A stretch of DNA of 64,000 nt from contig JAKUNM010000001.1 in NCBI GenBank assembly GCA_022451865.1, positions 4,733-68,732 on the forward strand, in the 5' to 3' direction. Both the position numbers and the translations under genes were made by a program. Source of the stretch: Dehalococcoidia bacterium. GTDB taxonomy: Bacteria; Chloroflexota; Dehalococcoidia; UBA2979. This document shows positions 43,860 through 54,465 of the stretch, one piece after another (the first letter of the stretch is position 1; every line of letters starts with the position of its first letter). The notes beneath the pieces are model-generated. The model did not search any database, had not been told where the DNA came from, and saw nothing but the letters and a program-made list of their open reading frames with translations.

Positions 43860-45056
43860 ATGGGAATGAGTATGAACCAATCAGTAAAAGCTCTCGATGA
43901 TCTAGTTATTCTTGATCTCTCAACTTCTATTGCTGCCGCTTGGTGTACTAGGCTATTTGCTGATTTCGGAGCAAAAGTGGTAGTGATAGAACCTCCAGAA
44001 GGAAATTCTCTTAGACATTTAGTCTCCAACGATTCTGAAGGCTCTAATTTGCTTACAGATCATCTTTTATCGAATAAAAAATCTCTACAATTAGATATTG
44101 AAAGTACGGATGGGAGGGTTCTTTTTTTAGATTTGATTGATAAATGTGACGTCATTGTTGAAAGCTCTGTGCCAAGTCAATTAGAAAAATACGGGTTGGG
44201 ATTTAATGATCTGCATGATTCTTTCCCTGATTTGGTAGTACTTTCTGTAACTCCTTATGGTCAGGCAAACGAATATAGTTTTGCGCCTGCTAATAGTTTA
44301 GCGATTGCAGCACGTTCAGGGTGGGCATCCATTAATGGATTCGAAGAGAAAGGGCCTCTTTCTACAAGCAGTAATCAATCAGCATATTGTGCAGGTGTTC
44401 TTGCGTACGGCGCTACTCTCGCTGCAATATTTAGTGCGAGACAAGAGTCTGGGAGTGGTCAATATATTGATATTTCTGAATTCGAGGTTATGGTTTCGAA
44501 TTTTGCTCCACCTGCACTCTCCTCAGAATATAGTGGCAACATAACTAAACAAAAAAGCATGCATGAGACAAATCTTCTCGCAGGACCTGTTCCAGTTCAA
44601 GATGGTCATTTTGCTCTTACTCTAAGTAGGGCACATTTTTTTAGAGATGCGATGATGGTTTTAGGTTTGGAAGATTTAGCTGAAAATCTTGATTTACATG
44701 AAACGTGGTATCGAATGGCACATAAAGACTTATGGATGGGTAGAGTTCAAGATGCAATGAGTGAGTGGACACGCGAAGAATTATTTGACGAACTTGCCTT
44801 GCGGAGAGTAGTGGCAGGACCAGTGTTGAAGATGGATGAACTTGTAGAGAATGTTCATCTTCAAGAACGAGGCTTTTGGAATCTTTTGCGAGATGATCCA
44901 TTGCAGGTATTAAGACCTGGTGCACCATTTAAGTTATCTGAAACACCGTGGGTACTTGCTCATAAGGCACCTGATATTGGTCAACACAATGAAGAATTAA
45001 CGCATATGATTCTTCATTCTTCTAATGCCATTAAATCACACGATGGAGGAATCTAA
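43860..45056 (+). CDS. Family III CoA-transferase (CaiB/BaiF family)
   Basis: N-terminal Rossmann LDDLVILDLSTSIAAAWCTRLFADFGAKVVVIEPPEG and interlocking-dimer architecture; ~400 aa. Confidence 0.85.
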   Translation: MGMSMNQSVKALDDLVILDLSTSIAAAWCTRLFADFGAKVVVIEPPEGNSLRHLVSNDSEGSNLLTDHLLSNKKSLQLDIESTDGRVLFLDLIDKCDVIVESSVPSQLEKYGLGFNDLHDSFPDLVVLSVTPYGQANEYSFAPANSLAIAARSGWASINGFEEKGPLSTSSNQSAYCAGVLAYGATLAAIFSARQESGSGQYIDISEFEVMVSNFAPPALSSEYSGNITKQKSMHETNLLAGPVPVQDGHFALTLSRAHFFRDAMMVLGLEDLAENLDLHETWYRMAHKDLWMGRVQDAMSEWTREELFDELALRRVVAGPVLKMDELVENVHLQERGFWNLLRDDPLQVLRPGAPFKLSETPWVLAHKAPDIGQHNEELTHMILHSSNAIKSHDGGI

Positions 45057-46318
45057 TGTCAGGACCTCTAAAAGGAATTCGTGGAATTGTTCTAACTCAA
45101 GCATGGGCTGGCAGTTACTGTACAGAACTTTTTGCGATGGCTGGAGCTGACATCGTACAACTAGAGGTTCGTAAACGTCCCGATTCTTGGAGAGGAACGT
45201 ACACAGCTCCGATGTCAGAATCTATGAATAAAATATCCACTGCAAGGCATGTCTGGAATATCAATTCAAATTTTAATGCTGTTAATCTTGGGAAAAGATC
45301 CTTTACATTAGATTTATCGCGTGATGAAGGCGTGGATATTTTTAAATCTTTAATTAAGCACGCAGATTTTGTTGCTGAAAATTTCTCTCCTCGTGTAATG
45401 GGTAACTTAGGTTTTTCATATGAAGAATTATGTGAGATTAAACCTGATATTATTTTGGCTAGTCTTTCTGCATATGGCCATGATGGACCATGGTGTAATG
45501 TTCCAGGGATTGGAGGAACAGTAGAACCTACTTCCGGTATGTCTGCTTTATTAGGTTATGGAGATGGTGTGCCTATTAATTCAGGTGTTATGTATCCAGA
45601 TGCAGTTGCAGGTCTTTATGGATTTTCTGGCCTTTTGACTGCATTACACTATCGTAATCGTACTGGTAAGGGTCAGTTTGTTGATTTATCTATGCAGGAA
45701 GCTAATTTGGCTAATATTGGTGAAGCTGCATTAGAGTACACCTATACAAAGCAAGTCCCTAATGCGATAGGAAATCGTCATAAAATTTATGCTCCACACG
45801 GAATATTTCCTTGTGCCGATGGTGTTGAAGGGAATAAAAAGTGGATTGCTATTGCTGCTGAAAATGATACGCAATGGCTGGCACTGTGTGAAATCTCAGG
45901 TATGTCATGGGCGAGCAATTCGAAATTTAGCAATAATGTTTTACGTAAGGAAAACGAGGATGAACTTAATCAAGAAATTTCTTTATGGACTCGAGGACAA
46001 GATCGAGATTTACTTTCGGACTTTTTAAGTTCAAAAGGTGTGATAGCAGCCCCTGTCTTAAATGCAAAAGAATTATTAAACGATCACGTTCTACGTTCAC
46101 GTGGTGTTATTGTCGAGTTAGATCATCCAGAAGTAGGAAAAAAAGCTCAAATTGGAGCCCCCTTTCATTTTTCCCAAGACAAAATATCAGTAGAACGTCC
46201 ATCTCCTTTACAAGGAGAGCACTCGTTCGAAGTTTTTTCAGAGCTTTTAGGAATGGATCGTGATGAATATGAAAAGTTAGTCGCAGAAAATATTTCAGGG
46301 GAAGGACCACCGAAATGA
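45056..46318 (+). CDS. Family III CoA-transferase (CaiB/BaiF family), second paralog
   Basis: LKGIRGIVLTQAWAGSYCTELFAMAGADIVQLE N-terminus. Start overlaps the upstream stop (TAATG). Confidence 0.85.
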   Translation: MSGPLKGIRGIVLTQAWAGSYCTELFAMAGADIVQLEVRKRPDSWRGTYTAPMSESMNKISTARHVWNINSNFNAVNLGKRSFTLDLSRDEGVDIFKSLIKHADFVAENFSPRVMGNLGFSYEELCEIKPDIILASLSAYGHDGPWCNVPGIGGTVEPTSGMSALLGYGDGVPINSGVMYPDAVAGLYGFSGLLTALHYRNRTGKGQFVDLSMQEANLANIGEAALEYTYTKQVPNAIGNRHKIYAPHGIFPCADGVEGNKKWIAIAAENDTQWLALCEISGMSWASNSKFSNNVLRKENEDELNQEISLWTRGQDRDLLSDFLSSKGVIAAPVLNAKELLNDHVLRSRGVIVELDHPEVGKKAQIGAPFHFSQDKISVERPSPLQGEHSFEVFSELLGMDRDEYEKLVAENISGEGPPK

Positions 46319-47157
46319 AAGATTTTGAACAAATTCGATATGTCGAGGAAGATCACGTTGCTCGTATAATTCTTGATCGCCCAAATTATCGCAATGCTCA
46401 GAGTAGAAAACTTCTTGAAGAAATGGATGAAGCTTTTGACTTAGCTGTTGATAATAGAAAAATTCGAATGATAGTTCTTTCTGGTGAAGGGCATTCTTTT
46501 TCAGCAGGTCATGATTTAGGTACTCCTGAAAACATTGCAGATCAAGAAAACCGTCCCTATGAAGAAGGGATGAGAGGTATATATAAAAGATCTACAGCTC
46601 AGAATGTCACTAATACATTGCGTTGGAGGAATATTCCCAAACCAACTATGGCTATAGTACATGGGTACTGCATATTTGGTGGCTGGATGATTGCATCTGC
46701 GATGGATCTAATTTTTGCTGCTGATGATGCTATGTTCTTAGGGACTAACTTTCAATATTTTTCACCTCCGTGGGATATCCATCCCCGAAAAGTAAAGGAA
46801 ATTTTCTTTGAAAGTCGATTTATTGATGGTAAAGAAGCTCATGAACTTGGCCTAGTTAATAGGGTTTACCCTCAGGAAATCTTAGAAAAAGAGGCTATGT
46901 CTTATGCACATCGTGTTGCGGAAAACGATGAATTTCAACTTCGTCTTATTAAACTAGCAGTAAATCGTGCTCAGGATAATCAAGGATTCACAGAACATAT
47001 TAATGATGCTCACTTACTTCATTTATTAAGTAGTCAAGCTGAGAAAGATCCTGATTTTGCATTGCAGAAGCCAGACATGCGTCGAAGACCAATGGTTCAA
47101 CGTGCGGTTGAAAACTATGAGTTACATAAAAAAAATAATTTGCAAAAAGAAGAGTAA
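46315..47157 (+). CDS. Enoyl-CoA hydratase/isomerase (crotonase superfamily)
   Basis: VARIILDRPNYRNAQS..L..E..EA........IRMIVLSGEGHSFSAGHDL oxyanion-hole region. 4-nt overlap with the upstream gene. Confidence 0.85.
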   Translation: MKDFEQIRYVEEDHVARIILDRPNYRNAQSRKLLEEMDEAFDLAVDNRKIRMIVLSGEGHSFSAGHDLGTPENIADQENRPYEEGMRGIYKRSTAQNVTNTLRWRNIPKPTMAIVHGYCIFGGWMIASAMDLIFAADDAMFLGTNFQYFSPPWDIHPRKVKEIFFESRFIDGKEAHELGLVNRVYPQEILEKEAMSYAHRVAENDEFQLRLIKLAVNRAQDNQGFTEHINDAHLLHLLSSQAEKDPDFALQKPDMRRRPMVQRAVENYELHKKNNLQKEE

Positions 47158-47161
47158 TTAT

Positions 47162-49594
47162 CTATTTGATAGTTTTTATTATGCCTGCTGAAGACCATTT
47201 TTCGATATCTTTTTTGGTTGAACCAACTAGTTGATTTAGTATTTCTTCAGTATGCTCTCCGAAGCGTGGCGCAGGTTGAATGTTCTGAACAGGTCTTCTT
47301 TTGTATCGCCATACAGGTCTTGTAGTTATCTGTTCTCCAGTCTCAATATGTTTATATGTCATGAAAGCTAAGCGGTCTTTTAAATGTTTGTCATATTTTA
47401 GCTGCAATGGTGACAGGACTGGTGAAGCAGCGATCCCTAGTGATTGTAATTGCTCTGCAAGTTCTTCAGCATGTTTTTCCCTAATCCAAGGTTTAATTAT
47501 TTTTTCAATTTTTTCTTTATTACTTACTCGAGCAGCTTTTGATGTAAATTCTGGTGTTAGAAGATTTTTGTCTTCAATCAAAGAACAAAACGAAATCCAT
47601 TTTGTGTCATCATTAATTTCAAAGGCTATATAAGTATCTACAATTTCATTTAAGATAGAGCCGTCTGAGTCCGTTTGATAGCGCGGGATGCTATCTTGTG
47701 TTTGATAGACTCCTGATGGCACATCTTGATAGTTATTATTTCCTTCACGATGTGGCAGGGGGTTACCGATTGATTCTGCAACAATATATTCACCTATTAA
47801 TCCAATAATGCCATCTCTTTGCGGTATAACGATGTGGCAACCTTGGTCTAGAGATTCTTTCCGATGAAGTGCAATTGCGATAGCGGCTGCTGCAGTTGTT
47901 CCAGCTATGGGGTCACCATAAGAGATTCCACTTTTATGAGGTTCTTTGGAATCGTAGCCTTGCAACCAAACCAAACCTCCCATTTGTTCGATGCCTGGTC
48001 CGTATCCTACACGATTTGCATCAGATCCTTCATGTCCAAAGCCAGGCATCGATACATATATTATAGAAGGATTTATTGCTTTAACTTTTTCATAATCTAA
48101 TCCAAGTCTGACTGCTACTCCTGAGCTCCAATTTTCTACAAATATATCAGCTGATGAAAGAAGTTTTAGAATAGCCTCTTTACCTATTGTTGATTTTAAG
48201 TCAATAACTAGACTTCGTTTATTGCGATTATATTCATTAAAGTATGCACTTTGATTAATTTCATTATCACTTAAACTTCCTCCCACTCCACGTACAGAGT
48301 CAGGAAAGTCAGGTCCTTCTATTTTTATTACGTCTGCGCCCATATCTCCAAGATAACGACAAGCATATGGACCAGCCCAAATTTGAGTAACATCGATTAC
48401 TCTCATACCTTCTAGAGGCATATCCGGAGAATGAATGTCATCTTTCTTGTCAATTTCTATAGAATTAACTGTTGAAGAAAATATATTACGAATACTTTCG
48501 GAATCTTCATTGACTAAAGGTGCACGCTTTTGGAATCCTCTATTCCCATCAAAAATAATTGGACCTGCAGGTAGAAGATGTTTGCCCAGTGTAGGATGTT
48601 CCACTTCATGCCAGAAATTAATTTCTTTTAGATTGTTTGAGTTAATTAACTCGTTGGGTGACATGATTTTTGTGAAAGGTGTTCGATGTTTTTGGGCAGT
48701 TTCAAAAATTTCATTTGAGCTGCGGATGCTTGTCCATTCTCTTATAATTTCGAATAGCACATCATTTGTATTAGGCTCCCAAGCATTTTCAAAGAATGGA
48801 TCTTCTTTGAATTCTGATTTACCTATACAGTCATAAATCGAAAAGCCTTGTCGAGGCATACCTGCTAGACCTATGAAGCCATCTTTAGTTGGATGTATTC
48901 CCCAGGTAGCTCGCGGTGAATTGCCTGTTCTTGTAGCATCACTGTCTCTAACTAATGCTGCTGGCCCTGCACCTTCTAATGTGGCATTTTGAACTTCTTG
49001 GAGCGAGAGATCAATGTAATCACCAAGTCCACTTCTTTTTGCTGCGACTAATGCCATTGAGATAGCAGCAAAGGCATGTAAACCACCTTGGTAATAAGCC
49101 TGATGTCCTACAGGTTTAAGCGGTTCCTGATCAGGTTCTCCGCACAAACTCATTTCTCCACCAGAAGCGGCGGCAGTCAGAGATGTTGCACTCCAGAGTG
49201 CATGTCTACCATATTGTCCATATGGAGTGATTGAACAAGTGACTATCTGTTTTTTTTTATTTATCAATTCTGAGGGATCGATTCCGTATGATGATAATTG
49301 CCCCGGGGCATATGATTCAATTAGTACATCAGAATCGAGAATTATCTGTTCTAATAATTCTCGATCGACCTTTAATTCTAGATTAATAGAAATTGATTTT
49401 TTACCACTATGCAAGTAAGCACCAAGTATGTTTGTATTTGGATCATATGAATTTGCATCGGATATATTTCGAATATTGTCTCCAAAAGATGTTTCGACAA
49501 GTATTACTTCTGCACCATATGTTGCAAATAATTTTCCGGCGAATGCACCTGAAATATCATTTGCGAGTTCTACAACTTTAATTCTATCGAGCAT
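47162..49594 (-). CDS. Fused tandem family III CoA-transferase (two CaiB/BaiF domains in one 810-aa polypeptide)
   Basis: Domain 1 N-terminus MLDRIKVVELANDISGAFAGKLFATYGAEVILVE. A second complete domain starts near residue ~390: LEGMRVIDVTQIWAGPYACRYLGDMGADVIKIEGP. Confidence 0.8.
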   Translation of the reverse strand: MLDRIKVVELANDISGAFAGKLFATYGAEVILVETSFGDNIRNISDANSYDPNTNILGAYLHSGKKSISINLELKVDRELLEQIILDSDVLIESYAPGQLSSYGIDPSELINKKKQIVTCSITPYGQYGRHALWSATSLTAAASGGEMSLCGEPDQEPLKPVGHQAYYQGGLHAFAAISMALVAAKRSGLGDYIDLSLQEVQNATLEGAGPAALVRDSDATRTGNSPRATWGIHPTKDGFIGLAGMPRQGFSIYDCIGKSEFKEDPFFENAWEPNTNDVLFEIIREWTSIRSSNEIFETAQKHRTPFTKIMSPNELINSNNLKEINFWHEVEHPTLGKHLLPAGPIIFDGNRGFQKRAPLVNEDSESIRNIFSSTVNSIEIDKKDDIHSPDMPLEGMRVIDVTQIWAGPYACRYLGDMGADVIKIEGPDFPDSVRGVGGSLSDNEINQSAYFNEYNRNKRSLVIDLKSTIGKEAILKLLSSADIFVENWSSGVAVRLGLDYEKVKAINPSIIYVSMPGFGHEGSDANRVGYGPGIEQMGGLVWLQGYDSKEPHKSGISYGDPIAGTTAAAAIAIALHRKESLDQGCHIVIPQRDGIIGLIGEYIVAESIGNPLPHREGNNNYQDVPSGVYQTQDSIPRYQTDSDGSILNEIVDTYIAFEINDDTKWISFCSLIEDKNLLTPEFTSKAARVSNKEKIEKIIKPWIREKHAEELAEQLQSLGIAASPVLSPLQLKYDKHLKDRLAFMTYKHIETGEQITTRPVWRYKRRPVQNIQPAPRFGEHTEEILNQLVGSTKKDIEKWSSAGIIKTIK

Positions 49595-49628: not shown

Positions 49629-50060
49629 CTAGATAAGTTTTGATGCATTATCGATAAATACTTGTAGGCTGGGGTTGTAACGGAAAAATAAGTCAGCCTT
49701 AAAACCATCTTCCATTAAGTTTTTATGGATTTCCTCTTCCAATCTCAAATCAAGAGTATTAAGTGTCCATTCACCTGTTGCATGTCCATTCTCAGAAATA
49801 TTTTCTAGCATTTCATCCCAAATATTAGTAGGCATTTCTACTACAACATCGACATCACGAAGTTCATCATCATTAATTTGATGAATATTGTTGATATCTA
49901 GGACATCAAAATTACAACTAATATTAGTCTTACCATATTTGAAGGCAATCAAGGCATTCAAGCGTCCATAACGTCGATAATTTTCATCTTCTACAGTTAT
50001 GTCTGCTAATTTCTGAAACCATTCAACGGAAGGAAACCTTTCTAAATTACTTGCCATCAT
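49629..50060 (-). CDS. Hypothetical protein, possibly SCP2-like lipid/acyl-binding domain
   Basis: 143 aa. Spacing of conserved W/hydrophobic positions (FPSVEWFQKLADI...YRRYGRLNALIAFKYG...) weakly resembles SCP2 sterol-carrier-like domains. Co-operonic with the CoA-transferase. Confidence 0.3.
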   Translation of the reverse strand: MMASNLERFPSVEWFQKLADITVEDENYRRYGRLNALIAFKYGKTNISCNFDVLDINNIHQINDDELRDVDVVVEMPTNIWDEMLENISENGHATGEWTLNTLDLRLEEEIHKNLMEDGFKADLFFRYNPSLQVFIDNASKLI

Positions 50061-50073
50061 GTCCTCCTAAAAG

Positions 50074-50376
50074 TTAAAAATCTATCGGTTTTCCAGGATC
50101 TTCAGCAACATCAAACGGAGTCATTTTTGCGAGATGTCTCATTGGTTCCGCTTCCGGTGTTTGTGCCATTCTGTCTTCTACCATGCGTTTGTACATAGGA
50201 TCTAAAGATCTTAATGCATCTATTTCATTTCTTGAAAGAGAAAAAGAGGTAGGGATCTTTCGGATTTTGGGACTTGAACATGCAATACATTCCTCTGGTT
50301 CTGGTGATTGTGACCCGCGAACCAATTTTTCAAATTGTTCATTACAAATTTCACAGCGATAAGCAAATAACGGCAT
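50074..50376 (-). CDS. FmdB-family zinc-ribbon protein
   Basis: MPLFAYRCEICNEQFE...ECIACSS: CxxC...CxxC zinc ribbon at the N-terminus, as in the FmdB family; 100 aa. Confidence 0.65.
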   Translation of the reverse strand: MPLFAYRCEICNEQFEKLVRGSQSPEPEECIACSSPKIRKIPTSFSLSRNEIDALRSLDPMYKRMVEDRMAQTPEAEPMRHLAKMTPFDVAEDPGKPIDF

Positions 50377-50379
50377 ATA

Positions 50380-51450
50380 TTATTCTGAAGCTCCAACATC
50401 TTCTGCAATTAATTCCTGCATTGGGTTTGGTATTTTATTAGTCCTATCGATGCCTGCCGTTTTTAAGTATTGCAGATAATCATGGATCCAATCTTTTTTT
50501 AATTTTTCTACGATTGACATTCCTGAATCAATATTGCGAACTCCTCTACCAAATATGACTGCTAAAGCTTCCCAAAGAACATGATCTCTTGTTTCATCAA
50601 GTTGTACTAGTTCCACTCGTGTTAGCCATTCTCCCAGAGTTTCTCGAAGTGCTGGCACTTGGCTGATAGCAAATCGGATATGATCTACTGCATATGCTAT
50701 AGAGCGTGTTCGATCTGATAGTATCCTCCATGCAAGTATTCTGTCAGCCTCTGTCGGTCCATAGACTGATAGATATCGTAGGATGTTTTTTTGGAAAGAT
50801 CCTCGCATGATATACTGAGCTAGTACTGTCTCTGACCAACCTGCGTAAGATTCATAGATGAGCCGGTTTAGCTTCCCTGGACTTTCAAAAAGCATCCCTC
50901 CGCCATTCACCATTGCTCGTTTTCTGTAGCCATCAAACATACGCGCTGAATCGAAAATGGCGGTAGAAAGATAGATCTTAACTTCATGGTAACCTGGGCT
51001 TAAATTTTGTAACCATCCAGAAATTACCTCAGATTCTACAGATGCTTGTTGACATAATTCTGTAGCGACTTGGCATATAGCTAGTTCTATATCTTCCGGG
51101 ATTTCATTTATTGATTCCCAAGGTATTTCAGTGGCAGTTGACCAACGTCTACTAATTGTTTCTTCATAAAGTAAACCGGCTACATCTGCCCATTGTTCAT
51201 ATTTATCTTGAAGATAGTAACCTCCAATATTCCCTACATCTACAGGCCATGCACCCCGTGGTCGACGGTTTCTATAATGAATGCGGTCTGGGATGTCTGC
51301 ATATACGCCAATATTAATTGCATCAATAGTTAGTCCACCTCCATTCAATTCAGGTCGCGCACGTGTTCCCCAACCCAGAGTTTTATCCATCCAACTGAGA
51401 TCATTCGTTTGAGTTTCTTCTGTAGGTATTGCATCAGGTTGTTGAACCAT
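50380..51450 (-). CDS. Conserved hypothetical protein (mostly helical, function unknown), first gene of the minus-strand CoA-transferase operon
   Basis: 356-aa ORF with tight spacing to downstream genes (3-13 nt). No canonical motif recognised. Scattered E/H/DH residues but no clear paired ExxH. Confidence 0.4.
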   Translation of the reverse strand: MVQQPDAIPTEETQTNDLSWMDKTLGWGTRARPELNGGGLTIDAINIGVYADIPDRIHYRNRRPRGAWPVDVGNIGGYYLQDKYEQWADVAGLLYEETISRRWSTATEIPWESINEIPEDIELAICQVATELCQQASVESEVISGWLQNLSPGYHEVKIYLSTAIFDSARMFDGYRKRAMVNGGGMLFESPGKLNRLIYESYAGWSETVLAQYIMRGSFQKNILRYLSVYGPTEADRILAWRILSDRTRSIAYAVDHIRFAISQVPALRETLGEWLTRVELVQLDETRDHVLWEALAVIFGRGVRNIDSGMSIVEKLKKDWIHDYLQYLKTAGIDRTNKIPNPMQELIAEDVGASE

Positions 51451-51551
51451 AAAATTATGCTTTCGAATTGATACCGTAATGGCGGTAGTGTACTGGTTCT
51501 GAAGTAACTAGCATAGTGGTCAATGATGGGAAAAATAGAATTAACTGTATT

Positions 51552-51639
51552 TGGTGCCGGGAGAGGGACTCGAACCCTCACGAGATTATATCTCGGCAGA
51601 TTTTAAGTCTGCTGCGTCTGCCTATTCCGCCATCCCGGC
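51552..51639 (-). tRNA. tRNA-Leu (anticodon TAA)
   Basis: Minus-strand sequence GCCGGGA-TG-GCG-GAATAGGCAGA-CGC-A-GCAGA-CTTAAAA-TCTGC-[long variable arm CGAGATATAATCTCGTG]-GAGGG-TTCGAGT-CCCTC-TCCCGGC-ACCA. 7-bp acceptor, anticodon loop CT-TAA-AA, long variable arm typical of tRNA-Leu, CCA encoded; 88 nt. Confidence 0.85.
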
Positions 51640-51666: not shown

Positions 51667-54465
51667 TTGTTCTCTAGAGTGCAACGATTGAGAAAATTAA
51701 TTCTTGAGGTGTTATCCTGTCTCATCGTACACTGTTTGTCTACCTCTCCAAAATCTTCTCCCCAAAAGGTGATTTTTTTGGCAAAAAATTTGGCAACAGT
51801 TAATTCTATTTCTGAATCCACACACCGGCAGGAAATAATACCTCCATCCGTGTCTGATGATCTTACTCCTGCACGTCGTCAATATCTAAAACTTAAGAAC
51901 AAAAACCCAAACGCTATCTTATTTTTCAGAATGGGTGATTTTTATGAAACATTTGATGATGATGCTAAGGTAATTTCAGCAGAACTTGGTCTGGCTCTAA
52001 CATCTCGACCTATGGGTAAATCAGAAGGTCGAATTCCATTGGCTGGTATTCCTTATCATCAATTAGATCGATATTTAGATCGATTGCTTAATGCGGGACA
52101 TAAAGTTGCTATCGCTGAGCAAGTAAGTGAACCTGGCAAAGGTTTGGTTGAGCGACGTATTGTTCGAGTCGTCACTCCAGGTACTATCGACAGTGACAGT
52201 TTATTTACTGCTGGTTTTCATAATTGGCTATGTTCGAGTGTCCCTGTTGTTAATAGCTCTTCACAAACAACATTATGGGGATTTGCTGCCTGTGATGTGA
52301 CAACCGGGGAGATTGAAATGCAAATCCTCACTGATGAAGGTTTACTCAACGAACTTTCTAGATTGCGACCTAGTGAATTAATTGTTCCTCCAAAAACTGT
52401 TTTACCATCTGAACAAATCCTTAAGGACATTTATTTGACAGTTCGTCCTTCTGAATTTTTTGTTAGTTCAAAAGCTAAACAGAAATTAAGAAAACTATTC
52501 AAAGATTCTATTGAACAAAATTTTAATGATATTTACATGGACCCTGCCCTTGGTGCTGTTGGATCTTTAGTTAGTTATTTGGAAGAAACATGGGAAAGTG
52601 CGATGGCAAATCTCCGATATCCTGTGTTTATTGGTTCATCTCAATTTATGGTAATTGATGCACAAACTCAGAAAAATTTAGAAATTTTTTCTTCCTCAGG
52701 GTCAGATCGGCGGAGTGGTTCATTACTCAATTCTATTGATAAGACCTTAACTGCCATGGGTAAAAGACTGCTTGTGCAACGTTTGGGAAGACCTTTATTA
52801 GATGTAGAAGCTCTTGAAAGACGTTTAAATCAAATACAAACCTTTACAGAATCTACGAAGATAAGAGATCTTTTGCGGCATTATCTTATTGATATTCCTG
52901 ATATGGAAAGGTTAACTGCACGAATTAGAGGTGGCCCCTATAATGCAAGAGATTTTGTAAAGTTACGATTTGGTTTAGAGAAAATTGTTTCTATTGATGA
53001 AATATTATCTGTTACTAATCAAGAGCTATCTGATATAAGTCACGATAATCTATCTAGAGTTACAGATCTGCTGTCGATTTTGCGAGCAGGTATTAATGAT
53101 GATCCTCCAGTTGATCTATCAGATGGTGGAACAATTCGATCAGGTTATAGCAAAGAAGTTGATGATTTAAGATTGATAGCAAGTTCCGCGCGCGAGAAAT
53201 TAAGTGATCTCGAATTACTCGAGCGACAACGTACAGGCCTACAGTCACTTAAAATTGGATATCATCGCGTGCATGGTTATTATATAGAACTATCTAAGGC
53301 TCAATCACAAGATGCTCCCCAAGAATATGTGCCACGACAAACTTTAGTATCATCGCAACGATTTGGTTATGCACCTCTTGATTCTCTTGAGAAAGAGATA
53401 TTAAGTAGCGCTGAAAATTTGTTGGCTGTTGAGCAAAGTGTCCTAGAAAAAATTGGTTCTGTAGTCACTGCAGCGAGTGAATTGTTGTTAGCCGCCTCTA
53501 AAACAATAGCAATTCTTGATGTTAGTACATCATTAGCTCAGATAGCTGTTGATTATGAGTATGTAAGACCACTTTATACGAAAACTGGTTCGCTCGATAT
53601 AATTGAAGGTCGACATCCAGTTTTAGAACAATCATTAGAACTGGGTGGCTTTATACCGAATGATATTTCATTAGGTTCCAATGCTGATATTATTCTACTT
53701 ACCGGACCAAATATGGGTGGAAAATCAACTTATCTGCGGCAAGTTGCTTTGATTTTTCTTTTAGCTCAGTGTGGTAGTTTTGTTCCTGCCAATAAAGCCA
53801 CTATTCCACTACGTGATAGGATTTTTTCACGTGTTGGCGCACAGGATAATTTAGCAGCTGGACAATCGACTTTTATGGTTGAAATGCTTGAGACGGCGGT
53901 TATCTTGAACAAAGCTACGGAAGATTCATTAGTTCTGTTGGATGAGGTTGGCCGAGGAACTTCGACATATGATGGTTTAGCAATTGCTCAAGCAACTATA
54001 GAGCATTTGTATAATTCTTTACTAGGTACTCCACTTACTTTATTTGCGACTCATTATCGAGAGCTAACTGAAATTGTTTCTTCCTTTGATCGCATTAAGA
54101 ATTGTTCTGTTTCGGTAAAAGAAACTTCTGAAGGATATGTTTTTTTGCATCAAATTATTGAAGGCTCTTCAGATCGATCATATGGCATTCATGTCGCAAA
54201 ACTTGCAGGACTTCCTCCCACTGCAGTACTAAGAGCTGCAGAACTAGTAAAGATTTTTGAATCGAGTAATGATTTGGAAATTCAAACTTCAGAAATAATT
54301 AATTCCTTTAGTGATGAACTAGATCAAAAATCAGAGATATTTAACTTGGCTGGGAAAATTGCAAAACTAGACTTAGACCATCTTTCTCCACTGGAAGCAC
54401 TTCAAGAACTTTATGAATTGCAATTAATGGTCAATAGTTCTTTAGAATCATCGCAGAATGATTGA
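51667..54465 (+). CDS. mutS: DNA mismatch repair protein MutS
   Basis: Mismatch-binding domain with GDFYETFDDDA. Walker A GPNMGGKSTYLRQ; DEVGRGTSTYDG. Start ambiguous: TTG at 51667 gives a ~60-aa non-conserved leader; GTG at 51850 would begin ...SDDLTPARRQYLKLK as in typical MutS. Confidence 0.9.
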   Translation: MFSRVQRLRKLILEVLSCLIVHCLSTSPKSSPQKVIFLAKNLATVNSISESTHRQEIIPPSVSDDLTPARRQYLKLKNKNPNAILFFRMGDFYETFDDDAKVISAELGLALTSRPMGKSEGRIPLAGIPYHQLDRYLDRLLNAGHKVAIAEQVSEPGKGLVERRIVRVVTPGTIDSDSLFTAGFHNWLCSSVPVVNSSSQTTLWGFAACDVTTGEIEMQILTDEGLLNELSRLRPSELIVPPKTVLPSEQILKDIYLTVRPSEFFVSSKAKQKLRKLFKDSIEQNFNDIYMDPALGAVGSLVSYLEETWESAMANLRYPVFIGSSQFMVIDAQTQKNLEIFSSSGSDRRSGSLLNSIDKTLTAMGKRLLVQRLGRPLLDVEALERRLNQIQTFTESTKIRDLLRHYLIDIPDMERLTARIRGGPYNARDFVKLRFGLEKIVSIDEILSVTNQELSDISHDNLSRVTDLLSILRAGINDDPPVDLSDGGTIRSGYSKEVDDLRLIASSAREKLSDLELLERQRTGLQSLKIGYHRVHGYYIELSKAQSQDAPQEYVPRQTLVSSQRFGYAPLDSLEKEILSSAENLLAVEQSVLEKIGSVVTAASELLLAASKTIAILDVSTSLAQIAVDYEYVRPLYTKTGSLDIIEGRHPVLEQSLELGGFIPNDISLGSNADIILLTGPNMGGKSTYLRQVALIFLLAQCGSFVPANKATIPLRDRIFSRVGAQDNLAAGQSTFMVEMLETAVILNKATEDSLVLLDEVGRGTSTYDGLAIAQATIEHLYNSLLGTPLTLFATHYRELTEIVSSFDRIKNCSVSVKETSEGYVFLHQIIEGSSDRSYGIHVAKLAGLPPTAVLRAAELVKIFESSNDLEIQTSEIINSFSDELDQKSEIFNLAGKIAKLDLDHLSPLEALQELYELQLMVNSSLESSQND

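Follow-up and report, generated by a model that had tools for sequence, protein, structure and literature searches.

A probable non-catalytic subunit of a putative two-subunit ferritin-like di-iron system, kept without its neighbouring catalytic paralog in a clade of Dehalococcoidia

What is the function of a 356-residue protein that matches no family model and is encoded at the start of an operon whose last gene specifies a fused CoA-transferase? The gene lies in a stretch of 64,000 nucleotides from a Dehalococcoidia bacterium (hereafter the window), and an earlier note, made from the DNA letters, had described it as an open reading frame at 50380-51450 with four motifs quoted from its translation. 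The frame and all four motifs are present on the minus strand (YEETISRRW at residues 95-103, SPGYHEV at 151-157, AYAVDHIRF at 252-260 and LDETRDHVLWEAL at 284-296), and the FmdB-type zinc-ribbon gene, reported as lying 3 nt away, indeed starts 3 nt past the stop codon. We refer to the protein as beta and to its paralog, encoded upstream of it in related genomes, as alpha. The features of the locus are as follows.

47162..49594, minus strand: 810-aa fusion of two family III (CaiB-type) CoA-transferase domains, the last gene of the operon (CoA_transf_3, 6e-157)
49629..50060, minus strand: 143-aa cassette protein with a conserved FPSxEW N-terminus (69/72 loci)
50074..50376, minus strand: FmdB-type four-Cys zinc-ribbon protein, 100 aa (C8, C11, C30 and C33; Zn_ribbon_8, 1.8e-11; TIGR02605, 1.1e-11)
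50380..51450, minus strand: the target, beta subunit gene, an open reading frame of 356 aa with an ATG start; predicted ferritin-like (R2-type) fold, metal site degenerate
51451..51551, no strand: 101-nt spacer between tRNA-Leu and beta, the apparent deletion site of an alpha gene of about 1.14 kb, from gene order compared with relatives
51552..51639, minus strand: tRNA-Leu (anticodon UAA), marking the conserved upstream edge of the cassette (ARAGORN; same place in relatives)
51667..54465, plus strand: MutS, divergent, used as synteny anchor (open reading frame; MutL-MutS-tRNA-Leu-cassette order as in loci L001, L005, L008 and L011)

The beta frame is a genuine gene. Among 5.8 billion proteins searched, 242 homologs were found, the best 120 of these 242 showing 46-92% identity; all the homologs listed are named 'hypothetical', and their named sources are Chloroflexota or Dehalococcoidia. 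An alignment of 44 beta sequences, the window's own included, contains 64 invariant columns, and the MVQ N-terminus is conserved across the family in this alignment, which supports the ATG start codon. The reading frame is intact, with identical start and length, in the four genomes of the 38%-GC clade to which the window belongs. The 399-aa gene call of a 92%-identical protein (P0001) is an over-extension that reaches into the tRNA.

Fold and metal site of beta

Neither Pfam nor NCBIfam gave a match to beta at E<=1, and PDB sequences gave none at E<=10 with either the single sequence or the 44-sequence profile, in line with the earlier statement that the protein could not be placed in a family from its sequence. 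An AlphaFold model (pLDDT 77.8, pTM 0.77) has a helical core at residues 119-331, which agrees with the earlier description of a mostly helical protein, and the N-terminal 90 residues are modelled with low confidence, yet are conserved. Helices 119-149/152-181 and 205-230/234-264 form two pairs joined by turns of 2-3 residues, so that the model has the long helices paired B-C and E-F that are expected of the ferritin-like superfamily. When the model was compared with the PDB by Foldseek, the structure search that the earlier note had proposed, the top 50 matches were all ferritin-like di-metal proteins (R2, R2lox, sMMO hydroxylase and PaaC). The best E-value was 4.4e-4, to the R2 protein of C. 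trachomatis, and the best superposition was on R2lox 6f6c_A, with a TM-score of 0.68 and an rmsd of 3.7 Å over 279 columns.

Sequence homology to established ferritin-like members was reached through a chain of paralogs. Searches with beta alone or with the beta family profile detected none; beta is, however, 29% identical over 332 residues (E = 1e-41) to the 379-aa alpha protein encoded upstream of its homolog in locus L001, and a joint profile completes the chain. Alpha proteins are about 370-390 aa long and have no Pfam match apart from a weak one to DUF455, and an alpha-only profile matched PDB sequences marginally (VlmB homolog, E = 0.01; R2lox, about 0.1). Searched exhaustively with HMMER, 1.84 billion cluster representatives yielded 863 relatives at E<=1e-3. 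A profile built from 52 diverse full-length members of this superfamily matched, over both ExxH helices, the VlmB-homolog di-iron enzyme 6d9f/8wvr (8.5e-10); it also matched Geobacillus R2lox (about 3e-6) and, weakly, phenol hydroxylase (E = 0.11). Individual members matched the Pfam models DUF455 (14/52), AurF (9/52) and Ribonuc_red_sm (8/52), the scores to AurF-type models all lying far below the family thresholds. VlmB has an AurF-like mu-oxo-diferric spectrum (PMC13061610). TusA was also matched by 7 of the 52 members, with a best E-value of 3.2e-7; the one member in which the match was located scored 24.2 bits against a Pfam cutoff of 28.6. The AlphaFold model of alpha (pLDDT 52, from a shallow alignment of sequences 66-100% identical) was left out of the fold searches.

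To compare the metal ligands, we aligned 117 alpha sequences together with 120 beta sequences. Each of the alpha residues E152, E184, H187, E234, E264 and H267 is 100% conserved (n = 117), and they are spaced E-x31-ExxH followed by E-x29-ExxH, in the pseudo-symmetric manner of ferritin-like proteins. In beta (n = 120), the corresponding columns read A 83%/G 15%, A 71%/S 20%, M 36%/H 35%, G 93%, K 49%/R 34% and H 59%/A 15%, and Glu is absent from the four carboxylate columns in all 120 sequences aligned. The target itself has A136/S168/M171/G217/R247/S250 there instead of E/ExxH/E/ExxH, and reads DSARM and DRTRS where alpha reads DEARH and DESRH. All six columns map onto the four long core helices of the target model. 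With small or basic residues at all the ligand positions, beta is unable to hold a di-metal centre; the basic residues K/R247 and R216, at or beside former ligand positions, plausibly fill the empty site.

The earlier note had found no clean paired ExxH and had discounted a ferritin-like enzyme on that account. The observation was correct, and it is explained by beta being the metal-site-degenerate paralog of a protein with a di-iron motif, but the conclusion drawn from it fails, as the Foldseek matches are ferritin-like proteins only and the alpha paralog has a perfect E/ExxH/E/ExxH set. Its suggestion of a metal-dependent helical enzyme is likewise unlikely for a family that has lost Glu at all four carboxylate positions. 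Beta is thus very likely a metal-free, ferritin-like paralog of alpha. Among the 52 superfamily members, the full EEHEEH set is found in 23 and only 0-4 of the six ligands in 29; judged from these sequences, the division between catalytic and degenerate forms is ancient and widespread in the superfamily.

A heme-oxygenase-like fold, which had also been thought possible, would make beta a heme-oxygenase-like di-iron oxidase (HDO) or another protein of that fold. Heme-oxygenase-like proteins are absent from the top 50 Foldseek matches, which are of the R2, R2lox, BMM and PaaC types, and the ligand spacing in alpha is that of ferritin-like proteins. The HDO ligand pattern, a 3-His/3-carboxylate site as in CADD, UndA and SznF, differs from the ferritin-like E/ExxH pattern. 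VlmB, which by profile is the closest relative of the superfamily with a solved structure, is indeed termed a 'heme-like diiron-dependent oxygenase' in one review (PMC11705231), but the matched part of the VlmB homolog corresponds in Pfam to AurF, a ferritin-like family, and to nothing else, and the superfamily members match AurF, DUF455 and Ribonuc_red_sm, making this assignment highly improbable.

The cassette and the missing alpha gene

When one genome per GTDB species was surveyed, at least 546 relatives were confirmed. The 80 loci fetched come almost entirely from Dehalococcoidia/Chloroflexota MAGs, a SAR202 bin among them. Cassette genes were counted by tblastn over all loci, alpha being scored where at least 1.3 kb of upstream DNA was present. 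Beta is immediately preceded by alpha in 80 of 83 loci, and 69 of 72 loci have a zinc-ribbon gene together with at least one gene of the 143-aa family downstream. Two copies of the 143-aa gene are present in 26 of these 69, arranged alpha-beta-143-143-Zn. As for the fused CoA-transferase, a close homolog comes next in 21 of 25 loci where beta shares at least 53% identity with the window's protein; among 41 loci with a more distant beta the count is 0. The linkage to the downstream genes pointed to earlier is therefore recovered, for the CoA-transferase within this subclade. The window has the order beta, FmdB-type zinc ribbon, 143-aa protein, with no alpha upstream.

As for the small and flanking genes, the 143-aa protein had no significant match in Pfam or the PDB; an SCP2 identity was considered and dropped, being marginal in 2 of 20 members (best E = 0.068) with no PDB match. 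CoA_transf_3 matches several stretches of the fused CoA-transferase (best 394-635), and NCBIfam models match 2-3 stretches each, all under their equivalog cutoffs. In the loci examined, the cassette has no consistent reductase neighbour, and scans for promoters and terminators near the operon yielded fewer matches than shuffled sequence. The listed TTG start of MutS is probably too far upstream.

Comparison of gene orders points to a loss of alpha. Loci L001, L008, L011, L016 and L074 have the order MutS (divergent)-tRNA-Leu(UAA)-alpha-beta, where the window and loci L005, L012 and L013 have tRNA-Leu, 101 nt and then beta, with alpha absent. These three are the only alpha-less loci among those fetched and are 89-92% identical to the window, and hence represent one clade; its GC content is 38%, against 66-73% in the nearest alpha-bearing syntenic relatives. 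No alpha remnant and no second superfamily member was found in the 64-kb window by tblastn (E<=10) or by an unfiltered broad superfamily HMM, and tblastn and HMM searches found no alpha in 11-15 kb around L005, L012 and L013, while the same searches detected both paralogs in a control locus (L008). Since alpha and beta are adjacent family-wide and the clade is nested within the CaiB-linked subclade, a lineage-specific deletion of about 1.3 kb between tRNA-Leu and beta is the parsimonious reading of these sequences. The earlier description of beta as the first gene of the operon holds for protein-coding genes, the tRNA-Leu(UAA) gene lying 101 nt upstream on the same strand. That beta leads the operon is true of the window's lineage only, because the catalytic paralog that normally precedes beta has apparently been deleted there; elsewhere alpha comes first.

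Beta could nevertheless still be a classical partner subunit, with an alpha encoded elsewhere in the genome and pairing in trans. The DNA examined covers 64 kb, multiple cassettes occur in some MAGs (a single MAG contributed both L041 and L054), two alpha-like proteins (P0157 and P0168) are encoded on one 92-kb contig, and the strong purifying selection on beta described below is as expected of a still-functional complex. However, neither the window nor the 11-15 kb of the three other clade loci contains an alpha-like gene. We also screened amino-acid composition in the 120 best alpha homologs (66-100% identity to the nearest alpha) obtained from the 5.8 billion proteins. The clade's beta proteins, which fall in a 90% cluster of 58 members, have FYMINK/GARP values of 0.92-0.94, and none of the 120 alpha homologs shows this AT-biased usage (at most 0.79, versus 0.92 and 0.94). 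Of the four most AT-biased alphas (0.77-0.79), P0222, which has the longest contig, belongs to a normal alpha-beta cassette. Pairing in trans therefore appears doubtful, and on the basis of the 64 kb and the database screen the 38%-GC clade is likely to have no alpha at all.

Selection on the remaining genes

If alpha was deleted, beta might be a remnant decaying after the loss of the catalytic gene. We estimated dN/dS by the Nei-Gojobori method for pairs inside the alpha-less clade, leaving out the pairs of 143-aa genes with L005. Beta has a dN/dS of 0.064-0.084 at dS of 0.55-0.92; the other values are 0.03-0.08 (zinc ribbon), 0.07-0.09 (143-aa protein) and 0.11-0.14 (fused CoA-transferase), so that all four genes are under strong purifying selection. 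Beta is also no more diverged than its neighbours from alpha-bearing relatives, being 72-73% identical to the L008 ortholog and 70% to that of L001, where the zinc ribbon is 71% and 68% identical and the 143-aa protein 73% and 77%. In addition, the window sequence, as a member of the 44-sequence alignment, carries all 64 family-invariant residues, and start and length are unchanged with the frame intact in the four clade genomes. The deletion of alpha is the one point in favour of decay; the dN/dS values, at dS up to 0.92, effectively refute it and rule out a pseudogene.

The retention of beta without alpha might instead indicate an enzyme in its own right, with a non-canonical site built from its invariant residues. 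H155, E156, E200, H257, E280 and E294 are indeed invariant in the 44 diverse beta sequences, and H155 is specific to beta, the equivalent alpha position being Tyr. However, E156, H257 and E280 of this set are invariant in alpha and beta alike, as are E96/E97, R101-W103, E122 and K177/R178. The equal invariance of E156, H257, E280 and E96/E97 in both paralogs suggests that they serve a common structural or interface function and do not form a new active site. The missing Glu at the four canonical carboxylate positions and the occupation or flanking of former ligand positions by K/R247 and R216, as would be seen in a filled-in site, argue against catalysis as well, and the fold matches point to no other catalytic type. 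We therefore consider a catalytic beta improbable.

Proposed role and comparison with known systems

Our main reading, to which we assign a probability of about 65%, is that beta is the non-catalytic paralog of a two-subunit ferritin-like di-iron oxidase or oxygenase system and has become alpha-less in the window's lineage. Of the functions suggested earlier, a structural or scaffolding role is thereby the best supported, beta without ligands standing beside a ligand-complete alpha in 80 of 83 loci. A ferritin-like fold and a degenerate partner subunit of the same fold are both already known, from PaaC and from the beta subunits of bacterial multicomponent monooxygenase (BMM) hydroxylases.

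PaaC of phenylacetyl-CoA 1,2-epoxidase (PaaABCE) resembles beta in being ferritin-like, metal-free and encoded beside a catalytic paralog and small accessory subunits. PaaA and PaaC share one fold at 17% identity, PaaC being structural and PaaA insoluble on its own; a small subunit, PaaB, acts as a bridge, and the complex has a CoA thioester as its substrate (PMC4498308). The target model matched PaaC (3pvt_B) at Foldseek rank 45, with TM-scores of 0.41/0.57. By analogy, the ancestral role of beta was, on balance, probably a PaaC-like partnership. The resemblance has limits: no Paa model of Pfam or NCBIfam matches beta at E<=1, beta is larger than PaaC, with its conserved N-terminal extension of about 90 residues, and it has no adjacent catalytic partner in the window. 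The cassette also differs from paaABCDE in having the zinc ribbon, the 143-aa protein and CaiB-type transferases in place of PaaB/D/E, with no reductase linked.

The BMM hydroxylases (sMMO and phenol hydroxylase) likewise combine a catalytic di-iron alpha subunit with a homologous metal-free beta subunit and small cofactor-less proteins, and sMMO hydroxylase 1fzi_A is among the Foldseek matches of the target. Their alpha subunits, however, have about 500 aa and match Pfam Phenol_Hydrox, whereas neither alpha nor beta of the cassette matches that model, and no reductase or Rieske ferredoxin is linked. The VlmB/AurF-type FDOs gave the best profile-to-sequence match of the superfamily, although the target itself matches none of them; they are single-subunit N-oxygenases of natural-product clusters, unlike the alpha/beta pair in its catabolic-looking CoA-transferase context. 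R2lox proteins are metal-binding homodimers that carry a bound fatty-acid ligand. They share with alpha an identical E/ExxH/E/ExxH ligand set, but the target is 11-15% identical to them in sequence, has lost every ligand of their Mn/Fe or Fe/Fe site and belongs to an alpha/beta pair.

By analogy with PaaC/PaaA and the BMM beta subunits, beta most likely heterodimerizes with alpha and stabilizes it where both are encoded. Candidates for the interface are many of the residues that alpha and beta both keep invariant (E96/E97, R101-W103, E122, K177/R178, H257 and E280), the N-terminal 90 residues may wrap a partner, and beta could offer docking surfaces for the zinc ribbon and the accessory protein of about 143 aa. 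Speculatively, the four-Cys zinc ribbon might serve as a rubredoxin-like electron carrier. The alpha-beta system would carry out oxygenase chemistry, likely on carboxylic acids as CoA thioesters; such substrates are suggested because CaiB-type neighbours recur and because these transferases are expanded in SAR202 (PMC5395668).

In the alpha-less clade, beta would most probably be a metal-free binding or scaffold protein acting with its two small partners. We tentatively propose that it has an alpha-independent function in the window's lineage, possibly as a ligand- or acyl-CoA-binding scaffold with the zinc ribbon, the 143-aa protein and the fused CoA-transferase, and we prefer such a role over an undetected alpha elsewhere in the genome.

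SAR202-type and related Dehalococcoidia are thought to oxidize recalcitrant dissolved organic matter by means of expanded oxygenases and CoA-transferases (PMC5395668). The cassette of alpha, beta, zinc ribbon and 143-aa protein, found in several hundred species genomes (at least 546 confirmed matches) and covered by no Pfam family, is a candidate new ferritin-like di-iron oxygenase system tied to CoA-ester metabolism. The alpha/beta family, its zinc-ribbon and 143-aa accessory proteins and its near-restriction to Dehalococcoidia appear to be undescribed, and a full-text literature search found no paper joining SAR202 with 'ferritin-like' or 'diiron'. If our reading is correct, the cassette would be a multicomponent di-iron system, not described before, of SAR202-type bacteria that acts on CoA-activated organic acids. 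Its most interesting aspect is the orphaned beta. The alpha-less clade is a natural knockout, in which a pseudo-enzyme subunit and its small partners remain under selection without a neighbouring catalytic subunit, so that the role of degenerate subunits becomes directly testable. Should beta prove independent of alpha, streamlined AT-rich marine Chloroflexota could drop the oxygenase chemistry and keep the remaining machine.

Some observations fit the proposed roles less readily. The cassette context, with no consistent reductase, does not support oxygenase turnover. The many invariant charged residues of beta (H155, E156, E200, H257, E280 and E294) may exceed the needs of a passive scaffold, although most of them are shared with alpha. 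Finally, the strong selection that keeps beta after the loss of alpha is not predicted for a subunit that purely stabilizes alpha.

Upstream boundary of the cassette and base composition of its lineage

The operon of the beta gene, which encodes the metal-free ferritin-like protein, is preceded on its own strand by a tRNA gene, and its last gene encodes a fused CoA-transferase, with further acyl-CoA genes converging on it:

51552-51639, minus strand: tRNA-Leu(UAA) gene, 101 nt upstream of beta
47162-49594, minus strand: single 810-aa polypeptide that joins two CoA-transferase domains of family III (CaiB type)
43860-47157, plus strand, convergent with the operon: an enoyl-CoA hydratase gene and two more CoA-transferase genes of the CaiB type, each with a single domain

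The tRNA-Leu(UAA) gene is conserved in relatives as the upstream edge of the cassette. The public gene call for P0001, a 92%-identical beta homolog, is 399 aa long and overlaps this tRNA gene; its start is over-extended. GC content is 37.6-38.3% in the window and the other members of its clade (L005, L012 and L013), against 66-73% in the nearest relatives compared (L001, L008, L011, L014-L016 and L074). Despite this extreme compositional shift, beta proteins of the low-GC and high-GC lineages are about 70% identical, and MutL-MutS-tRNA-Leu-cassette synteny is common to the 38%-GC clade and its nearest high-GC relatives. The GC shift between the lineages is consistent with genome streamlining.

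CoA-transferases flanking the operon

Conservation of the fused CoA-transferase 3' of the cassette is confined to the subclade whose beta proteins are at least 53% identical to that of the window, and the 810-aa protein scores under every NCBIfam equivalog cutoff. Since family III CoA-transferases are described as interlocked homodimers, the fusion may represent a pseudo-dimer. The single-domain pair at 43860-47157 recurs in L012 and L013. In one relative, L011 (10031-12629), the cassette is separated from the fused CoA-transferase gene by two inserted genes, which encode a molybdopterin-binding aldehyde oxidase/xanthine dehydrogenase subunit and a ThiS-like protein. The cassette of L003 has three CaiB genes and two genes of the enolase superfamily (MR_MLE) as neighbours, and a few kb upstream of it lie two tiny ORFs of 38 and 47 aa (433-698) with desulforedoxin-type N-terminal domains (Desulfoferrod_N), possible candidates for small iron-binding electron carriers.

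Variant cassettes, N-terminal extensions and unusual MAG labels

A second cassette type, found at L058-L090 (e.g. L075, 8053-9219), has the order alpha-beta-143aa-143aa-Zn-ribbon. Here duplication of the 143-aa gene has given a pair of diverged paralogs with about 30-35% identity to the 143-aa protein of the window, mirroring the alpha/beta duplication. In alignment A4, which holds 52 diverse full-length relatives of alpha and beta, some of the longer proteins, among them P0369 and P0337, carry N-terminal extensions. TusA matches occur in 7 of the 52 (best E 3.2e-7), the one located scoring under the Pfam cutoff, and one member has a SnoaL_2 domain over its cutoff (29 vs 27 bits).

Three cassette loci (L036, L037 and L073) come from MAGs labelled Vicinamibacterales, Armatimonadia and Actinomycetes, which reflects either binning errors or horizontal transfer. 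At the L073 locus, alpha is apparently in two pieces, possibly through a frameshift, and the downstream DNA yielded neither a Zn-ribbon gene nor a 143-aa gene. The alpha-like proteins P0157 and P0168, 75-77% identical to the query, are encoded on one 92-kb contig, where their locus tags, GEU80_08890 and GEU80_08900, differ by two genes; therefore, some genomes have tandem or multiple cassettes.
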